In this document: in pieces, positions 54,677-64,000 of the stretch
Layout: each line of letters starts with the position of its first letter
Position numbering within the stretch: position 1 is the first letter of the stretch
Source: a candidate division WOR-3 bacterium
Lineage (GTDB): Bacteria > Hydrothermota > Tepidihabitantia > Tepidihabitantales > Tepidihabitantaceae
DNA length: 64,000 nt
Assembly: GCA_965649205.1 (NCBI GenBank)
Contig: CBFGJV010000012.1
Coordinates: forward strand, 10,971 to 74,970
Direction of reading: 5' to 3'
Made by a program: the position numbers and the translations under genes
Notes under the pieces: model-generated
Seen by the model: only the letters and a program-made list of their open reading frames with translations
Told to the model about the DNA's origin: nothing
The model's database searches: none

Positions 54677-55150
54677 TTACTTTGGCCGGAAATGCAGGAT
54701 GTCGGTAATGGCGCCCTCCCGCTTGGCCTGAGGTTTCAGGACTGGGGTTACTTTCATACCGATGTATATGCCTTCCGGCTCCACTTCGGATAGAAGATGA
54801 ACCATACTGGTAGTCGCACCGTCCAGTTTAATCAGGCCCACCAGGACCGGTTTCTCTAGCGGCTTGCCATCCAGCCCAATGTACACCTCAGTCCAGGACT
54901 CCAGGGTACCGGAGGGGCCGACTTTTACCCAGTCGGCAGATTCCACCATACACTTCTCGCAATAGAGTTTTGGTGGAACATATACCTCTCCGCACTCCGG
55001 ACAAGGCGAGGCAAGAAACTGCCCCTTCTCTTTTAGAGTTTTGAAGAAGCGGTCACCGGCCGCGCCAGCTGTGTAAAGGCTTTGCACCGGAAGTTCACCA
55101 TACCAGGTGCCGGCTAATCCGGGCCTTGCGATTCTTTCCTTGAGTGGCAT
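54677..55150 (-). CDS. DUF35 Zn-ribbon/OB-fold protein (ChsH2 C-terminal-like)
   Basis: CPEC..VYVPPKLYCEKC and GMKVTPV..REGAITDI motifs. Confidence 0.9.
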   Translation of the reverse strand: MPLKERIARPGLAGTWYGELPVQSLYTAGAAGDRFFKTLKEKGQFLASPCPECGEVYVPPKLYCEKCMVESADWVKVGPSGTLESWTEVYIGLDGKPLEKPVLVGLIKLDGATTSMVHLLSEVEPEGIYIGMKVTPVLKPQAKREGAITDILHFRPK

Positions 55151-55164
55151 TTTTTTCTCCCTTC

Positions 55165-55728
55165 CTAGAGTGGTTTCCAGTAAAGGATATCGGTAATGGC
55201 GCCCTCCCGTTCCTCAGCCGGCTTCCAGACAGCTTTCACCCGCATACCGCGCTTGAAAGTCTTGGGGTCAGCGCCGCCGAGAAGATGCATGATGCCCATG
55301 CCGGGGGAAGCGCCGTCTATTTCGATAACCGCAGGCACCTGCGGCTCCTTGACGCGCTTCACATCCCAAGTCACATAGCAGAGCGAGAAGGTATTGACCG
55401 TGCCGGTATCCTTGAGCTCCACCCAGCCGTCAACCGGCCGGAAGCACCATTCACAGAACATGCGGGGCGGAATCATCACCCGACCGCACTTGTGGCAGTG
55501 AACGCCAACAAGCCTGCCGTTCTTCAATTCTGCCAGATACCGGCCCATAGCTACGCCTCGGTCCCAAGTATAACGGGCATCTGCCACCCAGCGGGTGGTG
55601 CAGACTTTGCCCTCGCGCAACTCTTCATCCGTAAGTCCGGTTCCCTGCGCACCGTAGGGTGGTGCAGCCGGCACCGACCTTGGCGCCGCAGTCTTCTGTT
55701 TCCGTACCCGTGCTTTTGCCTTTGGCAT
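55165..55728 (-). CDS. DUF35 Zn-ribbon/OB-fold protein
   Basis: CHKC..MIPPRMFCEWC and GMRVKAVW..REGAITDI motifs. Confidence 0.9.
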   Translation of the reverse strand: MPKAKARVRKQKTAAPRSVPAAPPYGAQGTGLTDEELREGKVCTTRWVADARYTWDRGVAMGRYLAELKNGRLVGVHCHKCGRVMIPPRMFCEWCFRPVDGWVELKDTGTVNTFSLCYVTWDVKRVKEPQVPAVIEIDGASPGMGIMHLLGGADPKTFKRGMRVKAVWKPAEEREGAITDILYWKPL

Positions 55729-55736
55729 GATTCCTC

Positions 55737-56897
55737 CTAGATTCCGAGCACCACTACCGTGCCTACCTGCATCAGGTCGCCCCAGGCCTGGGCTACGCCT
55801 CTGCGGGCCTTGCGCGCAATCTGACGCTTGCCTGCTTCGCCCCGCAGTTGCCAGAACAGCTCGGCAATCTTCATCAGTCCGGCGGCGGCAATAGGATTGC
55901 CGACACCGAGCAGACCGCCTGAGGGACAGACCGGCAGCTCGCCGTCGCGTGCGGTGACGCCGTCTGCGGTAAGCTGGGGTGCTTCACCTTTACCGCAGAG
56001 CATCAGGCCTTCCATGTGGTGCAGCTCCTTGTAGTCAAACGGGTCATAGGGTTCGGCCACATGAATCTGGTGCCGGGGGTCAGTGATACCGGCCATCTTG
56101 TACGCCATCCGCGCCGCTTCCTCTACGTAGCGCGGGTAGCACAAGTCGCGGTTGGTCCAGTAGGCGGTGTCAAGCGCCCAGCCCACGCCTTCAATCCAGA
56201 CCGGCTTGTCTGTGACCCGGCGGGCAATGGATTCATTAGCCAGAATGACCGCAACCGCACCGTCTGATACCGGGCTTACGTCCAGTCGCTGCACCGGCCA
56301 GGCCAGCACTTCGGAGTTGAGCACATCCTCAATCGTTACGGGTGCGGCAATCTGAGCGCACGGATGGTCGAGTGCGTTGTTCTTGTTCTTGACTGCTACC
56401 CGGGCGATGTCTTCCTTGCGCAGGCCGTAGGTCGTCATGTAGCGGTTCATCTCCAGGGCGAAAATCCAGAGCAGATTTGGCTTGAGCGGCCGCTCAGTGG
56501 TATGGTCGAATATGGTGAGAAACGCACCCTGGGCATGAGGCTGGTAGGTGGACATCTTCTCTTCGCAGACAACCAGGCAGGTATCGCATATTCCGGAAGC
56601 TACATGATACCAGCCTTGAGCAACCGAGAAGACGCCGGTGCCGCCGCCCACGTATGAACGCATATAAGGCTTACCCCAGCAACCGGCACCGTCTGAGAGG
56701 TACTCGCCCTTCATGTGTACGCCGTCAAAGGTGTCGGGTGCCGTGCCCAGAGCAACACAGTCAATCTGGTCCATCTTCATTCCGCAGGAATCAAGCGCCA
56801 TCTTGGTGGCCAGCCAGGACAGCTCCTTGCCGGTCTCCAAAGCCCGGCGCACGAACTTGGTCATTCCCACTCCGACAATAGCTACTCTGTTACCCAT
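55737..56897 (-). CDS. SCP2-thiolase-superfamily protein (Ltp3-like, lacks the catalytic Cys)
   Basis: VAIVGVG, VAVKN..NA, SPVSDGA and PSGGLLGVGNPIAAAG motifs; YVGGGTG occupies the place of the CASG motif. Confidence 0.85.
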   Translation of the reverse strand: MGNRVAIVGVGMTKFVRRALETGKELSWLATKMALDSCGMKMDQIDCVALGTAPDTFDGVHMKGEYLSDGAGCWGKPYMRSYVGGGTGVFSVAQGWYHVASGICDTCLVVCEEKMSTYQPHAQGAFLTIFDHTTERPLKPNLLWIFALEMNRYMTTYGLRKEDIARVAVKNKNNALDHPCAQIAAPVTIEDVLNSEVLAWPVQRLDVSPVSDGAVAVILANESIARRVTDKPVWIEGVGWALDTAYWTNRDLCYPRYVEEAARMAYKMAGITDPRHQIHVAEPYDPFDYKELHHMEGLMLCGKGEAPQLTADGVTARDGELPVCPSGGLLGVGNPIAAAGLMKIAELFWQLRGEAGKRQIARKARRGVAQAWGDLMQVGTVVVLGI

Positions 56898-56906
56898 ATT
56901 TCCTCC

Positions 56907-58055
56907 CTATGCGGCCAGCGTTACGACCGCGGCTGAAGCGGTTGGCACTCCCCGCCATGCCTGCACCAGACAGGTGGAAGCCCTCTTTAGCTGATTGGCG
57001 CCGGCTTCGCCCCGTAACTGCTGCACTGCGCAGTACAGCCGGGCAAGACCGGACGCTTCGTACATATGACCCATACCCAAGGAGCCACCCGAAGGATTCA
57101 CCGGCAGAGTGCCGTCCCGGCCGGTAGCGCCGGTTTCAGTCATATGAGCAATCGTAGCGGCGTCACCCAGCCCTAGCGCAACCAGATGTTGTATTTCCTT
57201 ATAGGTATAGGTGTCGTCCACCTCCAGAAAATCAAAGCTGCGCGGGTTCTGAATGTTAGCCATGCGGCAGGCCAGAAGCGACGCCTGCGTGACATACTCA
57301 GGATAGCACCAGTCACGCGTTTCCAGATTGGGCGAGCCGTTACACCAGCCCACGCCGGTAATCCATACCGGTTTGGCCCGCAAAGCGCGTGCCCGGGACT
57401 CGGTGGCCAGCACAAACACAAACGCTCCATCCACCGGCTGGGCGATATCCAGCTCAGTCAGAGGCCAGGCAACCGGCTGGGCACAGGCAAAGTCATCCAA
57501 GGTCAAAAGCGCAGCCTGACCGGCAATCGGATTGGTCAGGGCATTACGGCGATTCTTGATAGCGACTGCGGCACACTGAGCCGGCGAAACCCCGGTTTCG
57601 GAGCAGAACCGGTTCATTTCCAGGCCGGCGACAAAATGGGTATTGAGCCTCAGCGGTCGGACGGTTATCGGATCCTGCGCGCAGGCGGCGATGCCGTCCG
57701 GTGTGAGCATGTTGGACGCCTTGGAATGAGCTTCGACCACGGCGGTGGAAAACTGACCGGTGCGCAACTGCATAACTGCGGCGGCGATACCGTGCAGGCC
57801 GTCACCGGCAATAGTATGCATCTGCTTCAATGCCGCGCCGAGCTGATCCGGTACATACTCGTCGAAGATACTAGTACCTTCGGCATAGTCTTCCGCGCAG
57901 GTGACGAAGGTGTCAACATCCTTGCGCGGGTCTATTCCTGCGTCGGCATAGGCCTTCACCGCGGCTTCAAACATCATCTCCTTGTAGGAAACATCCGGAG
58001 AGATGCTGCGCAACTGCGTGGCGCCGATGCCGACGACCGCGATGCGTTCTGACAT
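56907..58055 (-). CDS. SCP2-thiolase-superfamily protein (Ltp4-like, lacks the catalytic Cys)
   Basis: IAVVGIG, VAIKN..NA, QPVDGA and VNPSGGSLGMGH motifs; IAGDG occupies the place of the CASG motif. Confidence 0.85.
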   Translation of the reverse strand: MSERIAVVGIGATQLRSISPDVSYKEMMFEAAVKAYADAGIDPRKDVDTFVTCAEDYAEGTSIFDEYVPDQLGAALKQMHTIAGDGLHGIAAAVMQLRTGQFSTAVVEAHSKASNMLTPDGIAACAQDPITVRPLRLNTHFVAGLEMNRFCSETGVSPAQCAAVAIKNRRNALTNPIAGQAALLTLDDFACAQPVAWPLTELDIAQPVDGAFVFVLATESRARALRAKPVWITGVGWCNGSPNLETRDWCYPEYVTQASLLACRMANIQNPRSFDFLEVDDTYTYKEIQHLVALGLGDAATIAHMTETGATGRDGTLPVNPSGGSLGMGHMYEASGLARLYCAVQQLRGEAGANQLKRASTCLVQAWRGVPTASAAVVTLAA

Positions 58056-58130: not shown

Positions 58131-58159
58131 AAGATACCGGACTGAACACAGGATGTCAA
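58131..58159 (-). promoter_or_regulatory. Sigma70 promoter of the thiolase/DUF35 operon
   Basis: TTGACA-N17-TATCTT on the minus strand. Confidence 0.6.
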
Positions 58160-58187
58160 GAAAGCCCGGCAGCTTGCGAAGATGCCA

Positions 58188-58216
58188 CGGAGCGGCCCGG
58201 CAGCAGGGCCGCTCCG
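58188..58216 (-). terminator. GC-rich hairpin downstream of the 123-aa gene
   Basis: CGGAGCGGCCC-N7-GGGCCGCTCCG, about 25 nt after the stop. Confidence 0.6.
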
Positions 58217-58239
58217 CGTGCGACTCAGGCGTGTCCGCT

Positions 58240-58611
58240 CTACGGCGTCGGCGCGCCGACGTTGAAGACTTGAGTGCGGATAGTTTCCAGCACCGACTGG
58301 GACAGACCGCGAGCTACCCATTTCCCGATCAGGGTAGCGGCTTCGACCGCCAAGGCGTTGCCGGACATATCAATCTGGCACAAGTGCCACATCTCTCGTC
58401 CGAAGTTCAGATAGAACGGATAGGTGATGACGGACACACCTTCCTGATCCAGAACTTGCTTCACCTGAGCTTCCATCGAAGCCAGAGAAACGAAAGTGTA
58501 GTTCACGCGTTCCAGCATCTTGGGTCGTCGTTCGGTCAGTATAGCAGAGATGCGCTCTATATTGTACTTCTTGTCCCATCCTTCTATGCGTCTGGTCGGG
58601 TCGTTTGGCAT
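58240..58611 (-). CDS. Hypothetical protein resembling the rudivirus (SIRV-type) major capsid protein
   Basis: Strong SD AAAGGAGGTG; 123 aa, helical-looking; motifs R...W..KYN, SAIL, V..VL.Q.GV, Y.NFG and SG.AL are colinear with SIRV2 MCP as recalled from memory. Confidence 0.7.
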   Translation of the reverse strand: MPNDPTRRIEGWDKKYNIERISAILTERRPKMLERVNYTFVSLASMEAQVKQVLDQEGVSVITYPFYLNFGREMWHLCQIDMSGNALAVEAATLIGKWVARGLSQSVLETIRTQVFNVGAPTP

Positions 58612-58865
58612 GGTTGTTCACCTCCTTTCTGCAGCGTGACTCGCCGCACCCCGGTTACTGTGCACGGGCGACCGCAGCGAAAAGGCTCCTGCTAGGTTCC
58701 TCCGGCTTGTGCCCGGAAAATGCGGCGGCTGCTGTCGCGAACGGGCAGTTGCTGCCCCTGCCCGCAAAATACTTGCTTCGTACCGGCGCTGCTTCTTCTC
58801 CTGCTTGTCAAAGAGCTGTCTGTTCCTGCACAGGAATATATGCTCTGTGCTGCCGAATTCGTAAA

Positions 58866-58891
58866 CAAAAACCCCGGTTTGAAACCGGGGT
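58866..58891 (-). terminator. Rho-independent terminator of the ECF/small-protein operon
   Basis: Minus strand reads AACCCCGGTTT-C-AAACCGGGGTT followed by TTTGTTT. Confidence 0.8.
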
Positions 58892-58916
58892 TGCGCAGAA
58901 GTGCTACACAATCAAA

Positions 58917-59165
58917 TCAGGGATTCTCTGGGAAGGGAAGTTTAGTGCCGGCCATTCGGCAGTACCTTTTCATCACTCTGTTCAACCGGGCAGCACCCTC
59001 CACTATCGGTGCCAGTATCTCCCGGTATGCGGGATAGCGCTTCAGAAACTTTTCCGGGGCTGGATTCTTTCCTCTCTGCACCAGGTCCAGGAACTCGTCG
59101 GCCAGTCGCTGGGCCTCGGAGTTCAAGCCTTTCTTTGCGTATTTCCAGCCATTGCCTGCTCTCAT
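58917..59165 (-). CDS. Small (82 aa) helical protein, putative ECF partner/anti-sigma
   Basis: SD AAAGGAGG before ATG 59165; LADEFLDLVQRGKNPAPEKFLKRYP motif; immediately downstream of the ECF gene. Confidence 0.65.
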   Translation of the reverse strand: MRAGNGWKYAKKGLNSEAQRLADEFLDLVQRGKNPAPEKFLKRYPAYREILAPIVEGAARLNRVMKRYCRMAGTKLPFPENP

Positions 59166-59202
59166 AAATTCCTCCTTTACCGGTTTTGGGTACCGGGCGA
59201 CA

Positions 59203-59892
59203 CTATTCTGACAGTTGTCGTCCACTGGTTATTCCTTGCTCGGCCAGGTACCCTCGTAACAAAACACAGGCATTCCTCAACTGGTATCGCACTGTGCCTT
59301 CGCTTATGTGCAAAAACCGGGCGATTTCGCAGCGATTCATGCCCCAGTAGAAAAACAGCACCGTTACAGAACGAGGCTTTTCCGGTAGCTGGCAGACGGC
59401 TTGCCAGAGTATTTCTTCGCATCTCTTGCGCTTCAGTATTTCTTTTGGGCCAGTGCAACTGGGCTCGGGGAAAACTGTTTCGATGCTCTCCGATGGAGGA
59501 TGTCGGCTCCGTTGTCGTAACTGCATGCGGCACAAATTGTCTGCTATGGTGAACAGCCAAGTGCGGAATTGCGCCCTGGTAGGGTCGAACTGAGCGAGCT
59601 GGGCGCAAGCCCGGGCCAATGTCTCTTGGGTAAGGTCCTCGGCGTCCGGGCGATTGAAGCCCCGGTGCCTGATCCAGGTATAGACTGGTCCCCGATAACG
59701 AAGCGCCAGCTCGGATAAGCATTCTTCCCTTCCTTCCAGTGCCCCTTGTATCAGCTGTGCATCGGTCATGATGCGCCTCCTGGTTCTTGCCCTGGCCCAG
59801 TAAGTCCAGCTATAGGAGTCCGGGTGTTCTTGTTCCTGGTCTGGGCAAACCGAGCCAGAGCTGATTTCCCGGACCCCCGGGGTGTCGTGCAT
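59203..59892 (-). CDS. ECF RNA polymerase sigma factor (alternative start ATG 59769)
   Basis: DAEDLTQETL, FRTWLFTIADN and EIARFLHISEGTVRYQL motifs; SD-like sequences precede both ATG 59892 and ATG 59769. Confidence 0.88.
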   Translation of the reverse strand: MHDTPGVREISSGSVCPDQEQEHPDSYSWTYWARARTRRRIMTDAQLIQGALEGREECLSELALRYRGPVYTWIRHRGFNRPDAEDLTQETLARACAQLAQFDPTRAQFRTWLFTIADNLCRMQLRQRSRHPPSESIETVFPEPSCTGPKEILKRKRCEEILWQAVCQLPEKPRSVTVLFFYWGMNRCEIARFLHISEGTVRYQLRNACVLLRGYLAEQGITSGRQLSE

Positions 59893-60011
59893 TTATTGCA
59901 CCCTCCATAACCATTATATGCCACGAAAGTCCGAATTCGTAAGAATTCATACAAAAAAGGCCTATTCAGAACTGGTTCCGAGGACAGCTTGGGCTGACTG
60001 TGCCTACTTCC

Positions 60012-60110: not shown

Positions 60111-62813
60111 ATGTGCAGTATTAGCACAGACTTTGTGCCTTTTTTTTGGGGCAAAACAGAGAAGGAAAAAAAGGACCGATACCATTCCTTGCTGCTGCAT
60201 ATGTTGGATGTTGCAGCAGTGGCCGGGCGTATATGGGACGAATATTTGACCCCACCTGTTCGCAAACGAGTAGAGCAAGGTCTGGGTCTAGAGGATGCCA
60301 GACCATTTATTATGTTTCTGGCTGGAGCGCACGACATCGGCAAGGCGAACCCAGCGTTCCAGAAGCGAAAGCCGGAATATCACGGGCTGGACGATTCCTG
60401 GTTTTCTCGCAACGATGTGCCCCGTCCGCACGGACACGTGAGTGCTAAGGTTCTAGGGAGATTTCTACCCGTGTCGCTATGGGGTCGGGTTGCGGGTGGT
60501 CATCATGGCGTTTTTCCCCGGGCAGAGGTTCTTCAGAACATAGCTTCTGGTACGCTTGGCGACGACCGATGGAACCAGGCCCGCCAGGCACTCTTGACTC
60601 AGCTTGCTTGCATCGTTGGGCTCCACCTGGACGAGGTTGAGAACACGCAGAGCGAAGTCAGCGACCCAGGACTTGTACCTTTGCTGGCCGGTTTTGTTTC
60701 AGTCGCTGACTGGATAGGTTCGGACGAAAACCTTTTCCCACTCGCAATGGAAGTGGGAAAGTCCAGACAAATAGACCTAGGTGCCTACTGGACAGAAACG
60801 CAGGAATCAGCCCGCAAAGCCCTGGAACAGCTCGGCTGGTTGCCTGCTGTGAAGTTTGCCTGCGAAACCTCTTTCCGCGGCGTATTTCCCGAGTACAAAC
60901 CTAACTCCGTGCAGAGCGTAGTGGCCGAACTGGCACTCAGACAGAAATCACCTTACCTGATGATTGTGGAAGCGCCGACAGGTCTAGGCAAGACCGAAGC
61001 GGCGCTGTATGCTGCAGACCTGGCTATGTGCCGTGGCTTTGCCCGGGGCATGTACGTAGCCATGCCTACGCAGGCCACAGGCAACAAGATGTTCGTCCGG
61101 GTTCACGAGGAATATCTGAGCAAACGCGGCCACCAAGGCAGGCTGAATTTGCAACTGGTACACGGCAATGCTGTCCTGGTTGATCTGTGCAAACCGAAGA
61201 ATGGAAATACCCCCGAACCTCAGCCTCGCAACATAGAAGACGACGCAGAAAATGAATCTGGAGACCTAGAAGCGCAGTCCTGGTTCACGGCCCGAAAACG
61301 GCCACTACTTGCACCGTTTGGCGTAGGCACGATTGACCAGAGCTTGTTGAGCGTGCTGCAAACCCGGCACTGGTTTGTACGAATGACAGGACTGGCAGGC
61401 AAGGTGGTCATCTTTGACGAAGTGCACGCCTATGACACCTATATGACCACCATTCTAGAGCGACTGCTGCACTGGTTGGCCGAACTGGACTGCACTGTGA
61501 TAATGCTCTCTGCCACACTGCCGGATGGTCGGCGCAAAAAGCTGGTCCAGGCGTATTCCGGCCGAGACGACGCTGACTATTGTCCTTATCCGCGCATTAC
61601 ACTGGCCCTGCCCAGACACCACCCTAAGGAACAGGCCGGAATGAAGCCGGTCTGTGTCGAGGTGCCAAAGGAAGGTAGCCGCCGGGTTGCGCTCCGGTTT
61701 CAGAATACTGACCTGGCACTCTTGGCTGGTAGACTGAAGGATGAGCTGCAACACGGCGGTTGCGCCGCAGTAGTATGCAACACCGTTGATCGCTCGATAG
61801 AAACCTATGATTATCTATGCCGGGAGCTGCGGGACACAGAATGTTTTCTCTTTCACGCCCGTACCCTGCAGAAATGGCGCCACGAGCGAGAAGAAGAAGT
61901 GGAACACAAGTTCGGCAAGGGCAAAAAGCAGCCGGACGGAACCTGCGTGAACCCGGACCGGCCATTTCGCAGCGTACTGGTGGCAACCCAGGTTATCGAG
62001 CAAAGCCTGGATTTGGACTTTGACCTGATGTTCTCGGAAATTGCGCCCGTAGACCTCCTACTTCAGCGTGCAGGCCGAATGCACCGCCATCTGCGCGTAA
62101 GACCCCAAGGGTTGGAAACGCCATGCTTCACAGTGCTTTGCGATGCGGAAGTTTCCGGCCCGCCGCCAGACTCGTTTGGCAACGGCATTGAGTATGTGTA
62201 TGACCGTTATATTCTGCTTCGCACCTGGCTGGTGCTGCGCCAACGGCGAGAAATCAACATTCCGGACGAAGTTGAAACCCTCATCGAGGCTGTGTACGGC
62301 CCGAACGCCCTCCCTGCAGAAGACGGCTGGTCCGAAGCGCTCTGTAAGGCCGAAGGCCAAATGAAGGACCGCAATTCCGAGTCAGAAAACTCCGCCAAAT
62401 GGCTGTTGGTGGCTTTCCCCCAAGACCCGTCAGAGCTGGTGGAACAGTTCAACGCGCAACTGACCGAAGACGAAGACCCCGAAGTACACAAAGCTGTCAG
62501 GGCGGCGACAAGAGAAGGCGACCCCTCAGTTACAGCAGTGCTGCTGCCCGCAGGGGAACACCTTTCCAAGTCGCCCAACCGGACCGAGGTTTGCCGGCTT
62601 TTGGGAAATTCGGTGAGCCTTAATCATCGCGGCGTGTTTGGAGTTCTCAGAAATGACAGTCCGGCTACTGAGTGGCAGGAATCAGTCCATCTGCGCCACT
62701 GCCGGCTGGTGCGGCTGGATGAAAACGGCAAAGCCCGGGTCGGCAACTATATCCTGACAGTTGACAAACAACGAGGCATTGTCATAAACAAGGAGGAACA
62801 AACGAATGGCTGA
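60111..62813 (+). CDS. cas3: CRISPR-associated HD nuclease/helicase Cas3 (type I-E)
   Basis: HD domain motifs HMLDV, AHDIGK, GHHG and ADWIGS; helicase motifs APTGLGKT, DEVH, SAT and QRAGR. Confidence 0.96.
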   Translation: MCSISTDFVPFFWGKTEKEKKDRYHSLLLHMLDVAAVAGRIWDEYLTPPVRKRVEQGLGLEDARPFIMFLAGAHDIGKANPAFQKRKPEYHGLDDSWFSRNDVPRPHGHVSAKVLGRFLPVSLWGRVAGGHHGVFPRAEVLQNIASGTLGDDRWNQARQALLTQLACIVGLHLDEVENTQSEVSDPGLVPLLAGFVSVADWIGSDENLFPLAMEVGKSRQIDLGAYWTETQESARKALEQLGWLPAVKFACETSFRGVFPEYKPNSVQSVVAELALRQKSPYLMIVEAPTGLGKTEAALYAADLAMCRGFARGMYVAMPTQATGNKMFVRVHEEYLSKRGHQGRLNLQLVHGNAVLVDLCKPKNGNTPEPQPRNIEDDAENESGDLEAQSWFTARKRPLLAPFGVGTIDQSLLSVLQTRHWFVRMTGLAGKVVIFDEVHAYDTYMTTILERLLHWLAELDCTVIMLSATLPDGRRKKLVQAYSGRDDADYCPYPRITLALPRHHPKEQAGMKPVCVEVPKEGSRRVALRFQNTDLALLAGRLKDELQHGGCAAVVCNTVDRSIETYDYLCRELRDTECFLFHARTLQKWRHEREEEVEHKFGKGKKQPDGTCVNPDRPFRSVLVATQVIEQSLDLDFDLMFSEIAPVDLLLQRAGRMHRHLRVRPQGLETPCFTVLCDAEVSGPPPDSFGNGIEYVYDRYILLRTWLVLRQRREINIPDEVETLIEAVYGPNALPAEDGWSEALCKAEGQMKDRNSESENSAKWLLVAFPQDPSELVEQFNAQLTEDEDPEVHKAVRAATREGDPSVTAVLLPAGEHLSKSPNRTEVCRLLGNSVSLNHRGVFGVLRNDSPATEWQESVHLRHCRLVRLDENGKARVGNYILTVDKQRGIVINKEEQTNG

Positions 62814-64000
62814 ATTCAACCTGATAGACGAGCCCTGGATACCCTGCATTGACCCGGCAGGAAACCGCATCGAATACGGCATCCAGGATACCATGCTCAA
62901 GGCTCACAAACTGCGGGAAATATGGGACGATTCGCCTCTGGTCACAGTCGCAATCCACCGCCTGCTTCTGGCAATTTTATACCGGGCATACCAGGGACCG
63001 ACTGACTGGAAGGAGTTATGGCTGAAAGGTTCTTTTGAGTCGAGTCAAGACTTGGTTGATTACCTTCACAGGCGTCATGACCGTTTCTATCTCTTCCACG
63101 ACAAGCATCCTTTCATGCAGGTGGCAGGTTTAGACCTCAACAAGTATGACAAGGACGGGAATGTCCGGGAGTACGGGACAGACGGGCTCATGCGTTTGGC
63201 GACTGAAGCGCCCGACAAGGGCGGGCGAGTTCTTTTTGAGCATCGGATGGGCACGGTACGTCCGGAATACGAACCAAGTCAAATTGCCCGAATGCTCGTA
63301 ACAGCTCACTCCTATGCGAGCACAGGAGTCGCACGCAGAGGCAGGGTGGGTCCTGACTCAATTACTCCGTCGCGGTGCAAGTTTGCTCCTTGCGTGCAGG
63401 GCCTGGTCATCTGGCTGCAGGGGGAAAACTTGTTTCAGACATTGCTACTCAATTTGGTGCCATACGTGTTCGATAAAGGGGGTCTCCCTGCCTGGGATGA
63501 CGACAAAATCGTTGAGACGGCCAAGAGGTCGTGGGGTCGTGCTGTACGTTTCACCGGTCCTGTCCAGCGATATGCGCCCTTGAGTCGCTTCATTCTTTGC
63601 CTGGACAGAAGGTCAATGTTTTTCACCAACGGGCTGAAGGCCGAGGATGATGATGGTGACCCGATGATGGCATACACGCGAAAGTCAGAGAGAGAAAGCT
63701 ACAAGGCCGTGAGACTCCGAGAAGACCGGGCGGTTTGGCGCGACCTCCATGCTCTCCTCGCCAAGTCAGACCATATCAGTAAGCCTCCGGCTTGCATAAA
63801 CCATTTTGCCAGTTTGCATGATGACGAATTCCTGCCGAGCAATTTCTACCCCCGTGTGAACGTCGTCGGGGTTGTTACCCAGCAGGGCAAATTCCTGCTC
63901 TGGCGGCATGAGCGGCTGCCGATTCCAGCCAAGCTGATTGGCAGTGCTGACCTGATTGAGCGCCTCGGTCAAGCGGTCAAATGGGCCGAGAATGCGGCAA
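62806..64000 (+). CDS. casA: Type I-E Cascade large subunit Cas8e/CasA/Cse1 (partial, runs off the right end of the window)
   Basis: Not in the ORF track. SD AAGGAGG; MAEFNLIDEPWIP, HRLLLAILYRA, RFYLFH..HPFMQV, GENLFQTLLLN, DPMMAY and AVWRDL motifs; overlaps the cas3 stop. Confidence 0.92.
   Translation, partial: MAEFNLIDEPWIPCIDPAGNRIEYGIQDTMLKAHKLREIWDDSPLVTVAIHRLLLAILYRAYQGPTDWKELWLKGSFESSQDLVDYLHRRHDRFYLFHDKHPFMQVAGLDLNKYDKDGNVREYGTDGLMRLATEAPDKGGRVLFEHRMGTVRPEYEPSQIARMLVTAHSYASTGVARRGRVGPDSITPSRCKFAPCVQGLVIWLQGENLFQTLLLNLVPYVFDKGGLPAWDDDKIVETAKRSWGRAVRFTGPVQRYAPLSRFILCLDRRSMFFTNGLKAEDDDGDPMMAYTRKSERESYKAVRLREDRAVWRDLHALLAKSDHISKPPACINHFASLHDDEFLPSNFYPRVNVVGVVTQQGKFLLWRHERLPIPAKLIGSADLIERLGQAVKWAENAA

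Follow-up and report, generated by a model that had tools for sequence, protein, structure and literature searches.

To our knowledge, the viral realm Adnaviria is confined to archaea. Its major capsid proteins (MCPs) include those of SIRV2 (ORF134, PDB 3J9X), SSRV1 (6WQ0), AFV1 (3FBL, 3FBZ and 5W7G) and SFV1 (6D5F), represented in Pfam by PF12193. Among cellular systems, those closest to the locus described here are the PICIs, capsid-forming PICIs and gene transfer agents, the SASPs of spores, and the plasmid ParR/parC iteron arrays. For the viral capsids, PMC5517147 gives 12 bp of DNA per repeat in AFV1, 'as with SIRV', and 12 bp per capsid dimer repeat in both AFV1 and SIRV2. PMC10541130 and PMC13700489 describe adnaviral families (Chiyouviridae, Baiyanviruses and Ahmunviridae) that have a pair of MCP genes with a glycosyltransferase gene close by, and 10.64898/2026.09.15.751708 presents IME1 as an unrelated candidate filamentous lineage of Dehalococcoides.

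The window analysed here is a 64,000-nt stretch of DNA from a candidate division WOR-3 bacterium, in which a capsid-type gene, referred to below as MAIN, is the last gene of a conserved cassette. MAIN resembles the adnaviral MCPs in its colinear sequence and full-length helical fold, and the array of the cassette has a 12-bp period, the same as the capsid repeat; unlike them, it is chromosomal, bacterial, multicopy, sigma-linked and less basic, and has no adjoining virion or replication genes. The cassette shares with PICIs and gene transfer agents a virus-derived chromosomal capsid gene, variable defence cargo and regulators of its own, and differs from them in having no integrase, primase or terminase, a capsid of filamentous type and a phased array. 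SASP genes are likewise multicopy, sigma-controlled and DNA-coating, with a fold unrelated to that of MAIN. ParR dimers polymerise on phased repeats, as we propose for MAIN, whereas the cassette array is degenerate and cassette-specific in sequence and the folds are unrelated. The cassette represents a cellular use of the capsid fold together with a DNA lattice that matches its footprint. We consider it an even call that filamentous A-DNA viruses of Adnaviria type infect bacteria and that, throughout a WOR-3 order, their capsid has become a family of modules that switch themselves on and build an A-DNA filament along a 12-bp genomic lattice, which would be either a new system of immunity or chromatin or a capsid-forming satellite of filamentous type.

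On the strength of profiles and of a predicted model, MAIN belongs to the SIRV2-type major capsid fold family, and we regard the homology, which four kinds of test support, as real. Taken alone, MAIN matches PF12193 at E 0.0017 with 18.9 bits, below the curated cut-off of 25.2; 43 of 79 aligned relatives match it at E <= 0.01, the best at 1.4e-8. Aligned by hhalign, the MAIN family and the SIRV2-type capsid score 96% (E 2e-9, 110 columns), and the top four of eight matches of the MAIN profile in the PDB are SIRV2, SSRV1 and two AFV1 chains (best E 0.00097, next match 0.51). Single-sequence searches found nothing relevant in the PDB with phmmer and nothing under E 0.19 in PHROGs. The original prediction had aligned seven segments of MAIN by eye with segments of the SIRV2 MCP, and all seven SIRV2 segments occur, in the same order, in ORF134 as deposited in a phage collection. 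Identity between the two colinear proteins is about 22%, their global alignment scores 50 where shuffled sequences average 10.8 (sd 5.1; z 7.8; equalled by 0 of 2000 shuffles), and the invariant R8 and W12 of the N-terminal arm of MAIN align to R13 and W17 of SIRV2.

Homology extends over most of the length of MAIN, and the predicted model (pLDDT 94.6) has an N-terminal arm and a C-terminal four-helix bundle. The eight best Foldseek matches of this model are all adnaviral capsid chains (TM 0.70; no E below 0.001). In a wider structure search all six chains with Z of at least 8 were adnaviral, the best of them at Z 14.2 (rmsd 4.8, 121 aligned), to be read against the tool's warning that helical bundles can reach about 13 by chance; this is a full-length match, arm and bundle included, of the kind that the original prediction had named as support. 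The bundle superposes at rmsd 1.6 over 79 residues. It is the gap to the first unrelated chain, at Z 7.6, and the agreement with the sequence evidence that argue for descent. The two proteins differ in charge: MAIN has a pI of 7.9 (14 K/R and 13 D/E), SIRV2 ORF134 one of 10.2 (11 K/R and 2 D/E), and this low net charge is the main result against simple capsid-like wrapping of DNA by MAIN.

Table 1. Features at the MAIN end of the cassette in the window
Feature	Position	Strand	Remarks
3' hairpin of MAIN	58186..58218	minus	13-bp stem, 7-nt loop of NGCTGCC type
MAIN, main capsid-type gene	58240..58611	minus	123 aa, ATG start; SIRV2 fold (predicted); last cassette gene
Shine-Dalgarno sequence	58619..58626	minus	near-perfect, 7 nt ahead of the MAIN ATG; kept in other copies
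Leader hairpin of MAIN	58741..58765	minus	GGCAGC in loop, complementary to the 3'-hairpin loop
boxA-like antitermination motif	58805..58816	minus	start of the MAIN leader
Cassette-specific bipartite promoter motif	58837..58864	minus	TTACGAA ... GCATATA, before MAIN
Intrinsic-terminator-like site	58870..58892	minus	closes the sigma/small-ORF unit, upstream of MAIN
Small conserved ORF	58917..59225	minus	about 80-100 aa; candidate sigma partner (putative role)
ECF-type sigma-70 factor	59203..59892	minus	likely start 59772; PF04542, PF08281; TIGR02937 above cut-off
Second copy of the promoter motif	59914..59942	minus	before the sigma gene
cas3 and cas8e/cse1	60111..64000	plus	type I-E CRISPR-Cas in cassette cargo position, running to the contig end

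The features around MAIN (Table 1) agree with the original prediction of a 123-aa gene with a strong Shine-Dalgarno sequence and a downstream hairpin of its own, separated from the genes upstream by a terminator. The 3' hairpin (-40.2 kcal/mol, z -2.6) has no U-tract; loops of the same type, on differing stems, stand behind other MAIN copies too, in 39 of 81 under a loose loop pattern. Its loop may pair with that of the leader hairpin: GGCAGC is found in 34 of 81 MAIN leaders and the 3' loop motif in 33, with both together in 21. The motif at the start of the leader, which we take to be a boxA-like antitermination signal, is present in 20 of the 81 leaders, although chance would give only about 0.001 per leader. 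Positions 54677-58055 nearby hold two thiolase-like genes and two of the ChsH2-like OB-fold type in an ordinary operon, for which there is a sigma-70-like promoter at 58131-58159.

The description of MAIN as a stand-alone gene, by contrast, did not hold. The supposed upstream operon, an ECF sigma gene and a small ORF, is part of the same conserved cassette, of which the genome has several copies. The usual order is 12-bp array, A, B, C, optional cargo, ECF sigma, small ORF and MAIN, where A, B and C are divergent capsid-like genes, two or three per cassette. Across 89 MAIN loci, some of them overlapping, the families that recur are the capsid-like ORFs, the ECF sigma (50 loci) and the small ORF (22 loci). 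Assignment of A, B and C, and of the viral MCPs described below, to this fold is based on profiles: for A and B the alignment with MAIN is limited to columns 44-119, which form the C-terminal bundle (hhalign 97.5% and 95.6%), and for C it spans columns 32-123 (99.7%), the sigma and small-ORF controls staying below 1%. The sigma factor of the window has regions 2 and 4 only, as in the ECF class, and the small ORF has no match in NCBIfam and resembles unnamed clusters, mostly of Planctomycetota (score 0.95). The cassette is not universal in its parts. In G194 the sigma gene and the small ORF are absent from all nine regions read, and several MAIN copies of other genera stand without an array or a sigma gene in their vicinity. 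In keeping with the original prediction, the scan of neighbouring genes brought up no integrase and no gene for replication or other virion parts, nor does any recur in the 89 loci; the window locus is not a provirus. A search for longer, fused capsid forms among 8000 scored candidates returned one match, which looks like a misjoined ORF and is weak evidence.

The array ahead of the first cassette gene is a degenerate tract of about 20 to 40 units whose consensus differs from cassette to cassette while its period stays constant. Periods of 7 to 18 were tried, and only 12 ever exceeded the threshold: it was the best period in 16 of 25 starts, the other nine having no array. Indels between related arrays are too few to show whether they come in multiples of 12. 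A coding origin was rejected, as 17 of 31 arrays have stops in all six frames and no peptide is shared. In 400 kb of the non-carrier genome G133 there was no array against about 2.4 expected at carrier density, a weak control and suggestive only. The window genome (G000) has 13 such tracts in 2.15 Mb, several of them solo or with a truncated A gene behind. Solo related arrays lie at C1:64821, C5:1021, C8:34501, C20:14521, C6:11841 and C5:49741 and at the end of C10; several retain the cassette promoter and a truncated first gene, and they stand beside host promoters or tRNA genes. At C1:37161-38709 an array is followed by an HTH-like gene and by an ORF of 265 aa in which two stretches look faintly capsid-like (E 0.04).

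MAIN and its paralogs might have become local, array-specific transcription regulators that no longer turn long stretches of DNA to the A form. The low net charge of MAIN would suit such a role, as would the position of arrays next to promoters, host ones included, and a very divergent two-domain capsid-like candidate near an array (C1:37912-38709, E 0.04 only). We think it quite improbable, since MAIN retains the full N-terminal arm with the invariant arginine and tryptophan, and arrays of 20 to 40 units suggest a polymer.

The promoter motif of the window turns up eight times in the genome, where 0.1 would be expected, and each time at a cassette or an array. We compared the region after the array with that before MAIN in 18 complete cassettes, and found a two-box motif with variable spacer that is common within a cassette and different between cassettes. 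In 12 of the 18 (one tie) the array-proximal motif matched its own MAIN promoter best, in three more the own motif was surpassed only by that of a sister cassette in which it is identical, and in three no motif was shared. The repetition of a motif before the first and the last gene in 15 of 18 cassettes points to a sigma feedback loop and, from what is known of ECF biology, the cassette sigma probably reads the private motif. Such a loop is not universal, given the G194 regions and the copies of other genera that are without these parts.

Our preferred reading, to which we give a probability of roughly 40%, is that the cassette is a sigma-switched, virus-derived DNA-coating module whose MAIN dimers nucleate on the 12-bp track and which is used against related viruses. 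MAIN would supply its bulk subunit, and one WOR-3 order would have kept the module and would go on duplicating it. The ECF sigma would read the private motif, amplify itself and switch on MAIN in a burst, while the small ORF would act as a brake. Predicted MAIN dimers would each cover 12 bp, and the phased array would be the nucleation track of a SIRV2-like A-DNA filament that could spread over the adjacent promoter and close the loop. The paralogs A and B, which have the C-terminal bundle only, and the fast-evolving C may start, cap or poison filaments. The most likely use would be a response to related viruses, by coating DNA or spoiling virion assembly; it is supported by the defence-like cargo and by the coincidence, in genus g14, of richness in copies with anti-virus spacers. 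The cassette brings coating of DNA in A form within a cell, and the origin of the capsid, within reach of tests on one small protein and a 400-bp array.

A survey of homologs and of their neighbourhoods found the MAIN family throughout the order to which the window genome belongs, with recurrent cassette neighbours. Scanning 272 genomes of the phylum, we found the family in 65 of the 66 genomes of that order, the exception being 68% complete, and in none of the 206 others. The wider family has 968 representatives at 50% identity, and the closest named relatives of MAIN are WOR-3 hypothetical proteins (154 matches among 156 candidates; top identity 86%). Carrier genomes have from one to at least 16 matches; all genomes of genus g14 but one reach at least 16, and the 14 matches of the single-contig genome G194 are dispersed round the chromosome, some with stops. 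The window genome has five full-length copies (on C12, C13, C17, C21 and C22) and several fragments or divergent copies. A 3' part of a capsid-type gene is 97% identical between C2:1-154 and C21:35319-35459, probably by recent duplication or conversion. MAIN is an order-wide chromosomal gene under purifying selection (dN/dS 0.10), and its three capsid-like paralogs are under purifying selection as well (C 0.31, B 0.28, A 0.22). Together with the conserved gene order and promoters, and a tree in which the chromosomal proteins stand apart from the sampled viral ones (94/97), this selection already contradicts the idea that cassettes are decaying endogenous viral fragments devoid of function; although truncated and stop-bearing copies do exist, we judge it very improbable.

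Order-wide retention, the short branches of MAIN, its strong expression signals and the dispersal of 13 arrays over 2.15 Mb would also be expected of a general chromatin protein of stress or dormancy, a SASP analogue induced by the ECF sigma that coats the whole chromosome from dispersed arrays. We find this unlikely: private promoters, cargo, fast-evolving paralogs, stop-bearing copies and turnover of copy number would be left unexplained, and MAIN has no match to the Pfam SASP alpha/beta family at E <= 1. The picture of a lone SASP-like nucleoid gene, drawn in the original prediction, is too narrow: it leaves out the cassette with its 12-bp array and its private sigma/promoter pair, and also the turnover in copy number.

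The module of our preferred reading carries cargo that is defence-like in both loci read in detail. Another contig of the window genome, C43, has ORFs reading as cas5, cas6, cas1 and cas2 and a 37-repeat array, followed by C, B, A and a 12-bp array. We infer that the window contig joins C43, which would supply the rest of the type I-E locus and the start of the cassette, because of synteny with locus L105 of the same-genus genome G205, whose genes match the B/C and A genes of C43 at 80% and 74%. There the cassette is whole on one contig, and its 6.5 kb of cargo comprises genes for an XRE/SocA-Panacea protein, YdjM, a TPR protein and a DNA methylase, with four stray MAIN 3' ends lying between them. 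A second CRISPR array of the window genome, of a different type and with 14 repeats, lies at C20:1571-2638.

Several of these features suit a capsid-forming satellite or gene-transfer element, in which A, B and C would recognise their own array and MAIN would package cassette and cargo in a filament of flexible length; a helper virus would give end proteins and lysis, and the private sigma/promoter pairs would act like immunity groups. Flanks differ at nearly every MAIN locus, and no capsid-like gene lies upstream of the thiolase ortholog in any of nine other genomes with several kb of flank (two further regions are too short, one of them with a 12-bp array). Synonymous divergence at the G205 locus ranges from 0.36 to saturation in cassette genes, mostly above the 0.30 of the host thiolase, which implies exchange between cassette copies. 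Solo arrays with truncated first genes, the stray 3' ends, the range of one to at least 16 copies and the defence-type cargo point the same way. The satellite nevertheless appears to us possible rather than favoured. Neither integrases with att sites and replication modules, by which phage satellites are recognised, nor transposases or end proteins recur as families in the 89 loci; no terminal repeats or target duplications were noticed at cassettes; the structural protein of the viruses described below has only weak, CARDB-like matches in the 272 genomes; and a pure parasite would not usually be present in as many as 65 of 66 genomes. No excised form of the cassette occurred among the matches listed in the contigs of four DNA runs.

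Relatives of MAIN are also encoded by small virus-like elements. Four short contigs in unrelated bins (L085-L088) carry tandem capsid genes, and when metagenomes were scanned with the second MCP of these contigs, 118 of 267 stretches were confirmed and 77 loci kept (L125-L201). Together these make 81 contigs in 59 groups. Among the 40 longest, five overlap exactly at their ends by 127 nt and several more wrap internally, which gives circles of about 7 to 9.5 kb and a single one of 15 kb. The genomes of Adnaviria are linear dsDNA; terminal redundancy or a replicative form would give the same circular picture, and no inverted termini were seen in these 40. An apparent inverted terminus in L088 was rejected as a direct repeat across a scaffold gap. 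Counted by group, 57 of 59 encode a structural protein that begins CARDB-like, 32 a holin-like protein, 24 an RHH-like protein, 17 a GT2, 8 a Dam-like protein and 4 a peptidase M15; reading five complete genomes by eye, we recognised no gene for replication. The MCPs match PF12193 at E values down to 5e-5 and SIRV2 by hhalign at 92.5% and 80.5%, so that these contigs have, by profile, the SIRV2-type MCP that is the hallmark of Adnaviria. Among 45 viral MCP leaders, 37 have a sigma-70-like promoter and 36 a Shine-Dalgarno sequence. As for 12-bp arrays, none is clear in the sampled virus-like contigs (one borderline among 81), and SIRV2 is also without one.

With Chiyouviridae, Baiyanviruses and Ahmunviridae the circles share tandem MCP1/MCP2 genes, often a glycosyltransferase, methyltransferases and an RHH-like protein. 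They differ in size (7-15 kb), circular assembly, sigma-70 promoters, a holin-like gene, sometimes a peptidase M15, and the lack of a recognisable replication gene, and they are targeted by WOR-3 spacers. Bacterial promoters, peptidase M15 and these spacers do not fit the archaeal host of Adnaviria. The spacer set comprised 146 distinct WOR-3 spacers, and the arrays of G221 and G219 were found by virus-DNA query, so that the rate of matches is not unbiased. One G221 spacer matches a virus at 33 of 35 nt (11 of 11 aa). In the type I-E array of G219, three consecutive spacers match viruses at 29, 25 (10 of 10 aa identical) and 24 of 32 nt, the last not significant alone because shuffled spacers reach 71-75%. 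The best match of each G219 spacer is preceded by AAG, the canonical type I-E PAM. Both genomes are of genus g14, in the same family as the window genome, and the G221 contig is syntenic with contig C4 of the latter, whose own spacers match no virus. Only one (L288) of 64 loci with short DNA matches to the viruses lies inside a CRISPR array.

Small virus-like elements with a MAIN-type coat thus appear to infect WOR-3 bacteria. The viruses are relatives and not a demonstrated donor, because the chromosomal proteins group apart from viral MCP1/MCP2 and SIRV2 in the tree (95 rows, subsampled, 124 columns, midpoint root). The original prediction had offered a co-opted bacterial protein and the trace of a filamentous virus of bacteria as alternatives; both ideas are supported at once. 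IMG/VR scans with four queries and a tblastn search of INPHARED with a viral MCP found no relative, one query with the structural protein revealed no integrated prophage in the phylum, and literature searches, outside subscription papers and supplements, brought up no paper on WOR-3 or bacterial SIRV2-type capsids. The CRISPR evidence from two genomes for bacterial hosts and dozens of small genomes not found in IMG/VR would extend a viral realm to another domain.

Some minor observations concern the same sequences. About 100-130 nt before the first MCP gene, loci L125-L201 have a conserved structured leader with no Rfam match (for example, L153:7015-7127 and L161:8250-8360), a hairpin of varying stem whose loop can pair, pseudoknot-like, with a stretch before the Shine-Dalgarno sequence; it is possibly a riboswitch or a capsid-bound translational operator. 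Rfam families were likewise absent from seven virus contigs. In the unnamed proteins P0204, P0216, P0242, P0247 and P0259 a capsid-type domain at the N terminus is followed by a C-terminal extension, and they resemble minor virion proteins. An IS110-family transposase in two pieces lies inside a complete virus-like circle (L192:3476-4597), and a 1.9-kb contig of a WOR-3 bin (L217, G217:C627), which may be misbinned, is a fragment of such a virus. Finally, heptamer tandem repeats are common to virus contig L153 (15908-15940), many genomes of family f1 and contigs C15, C20 and C29 of the window genome.
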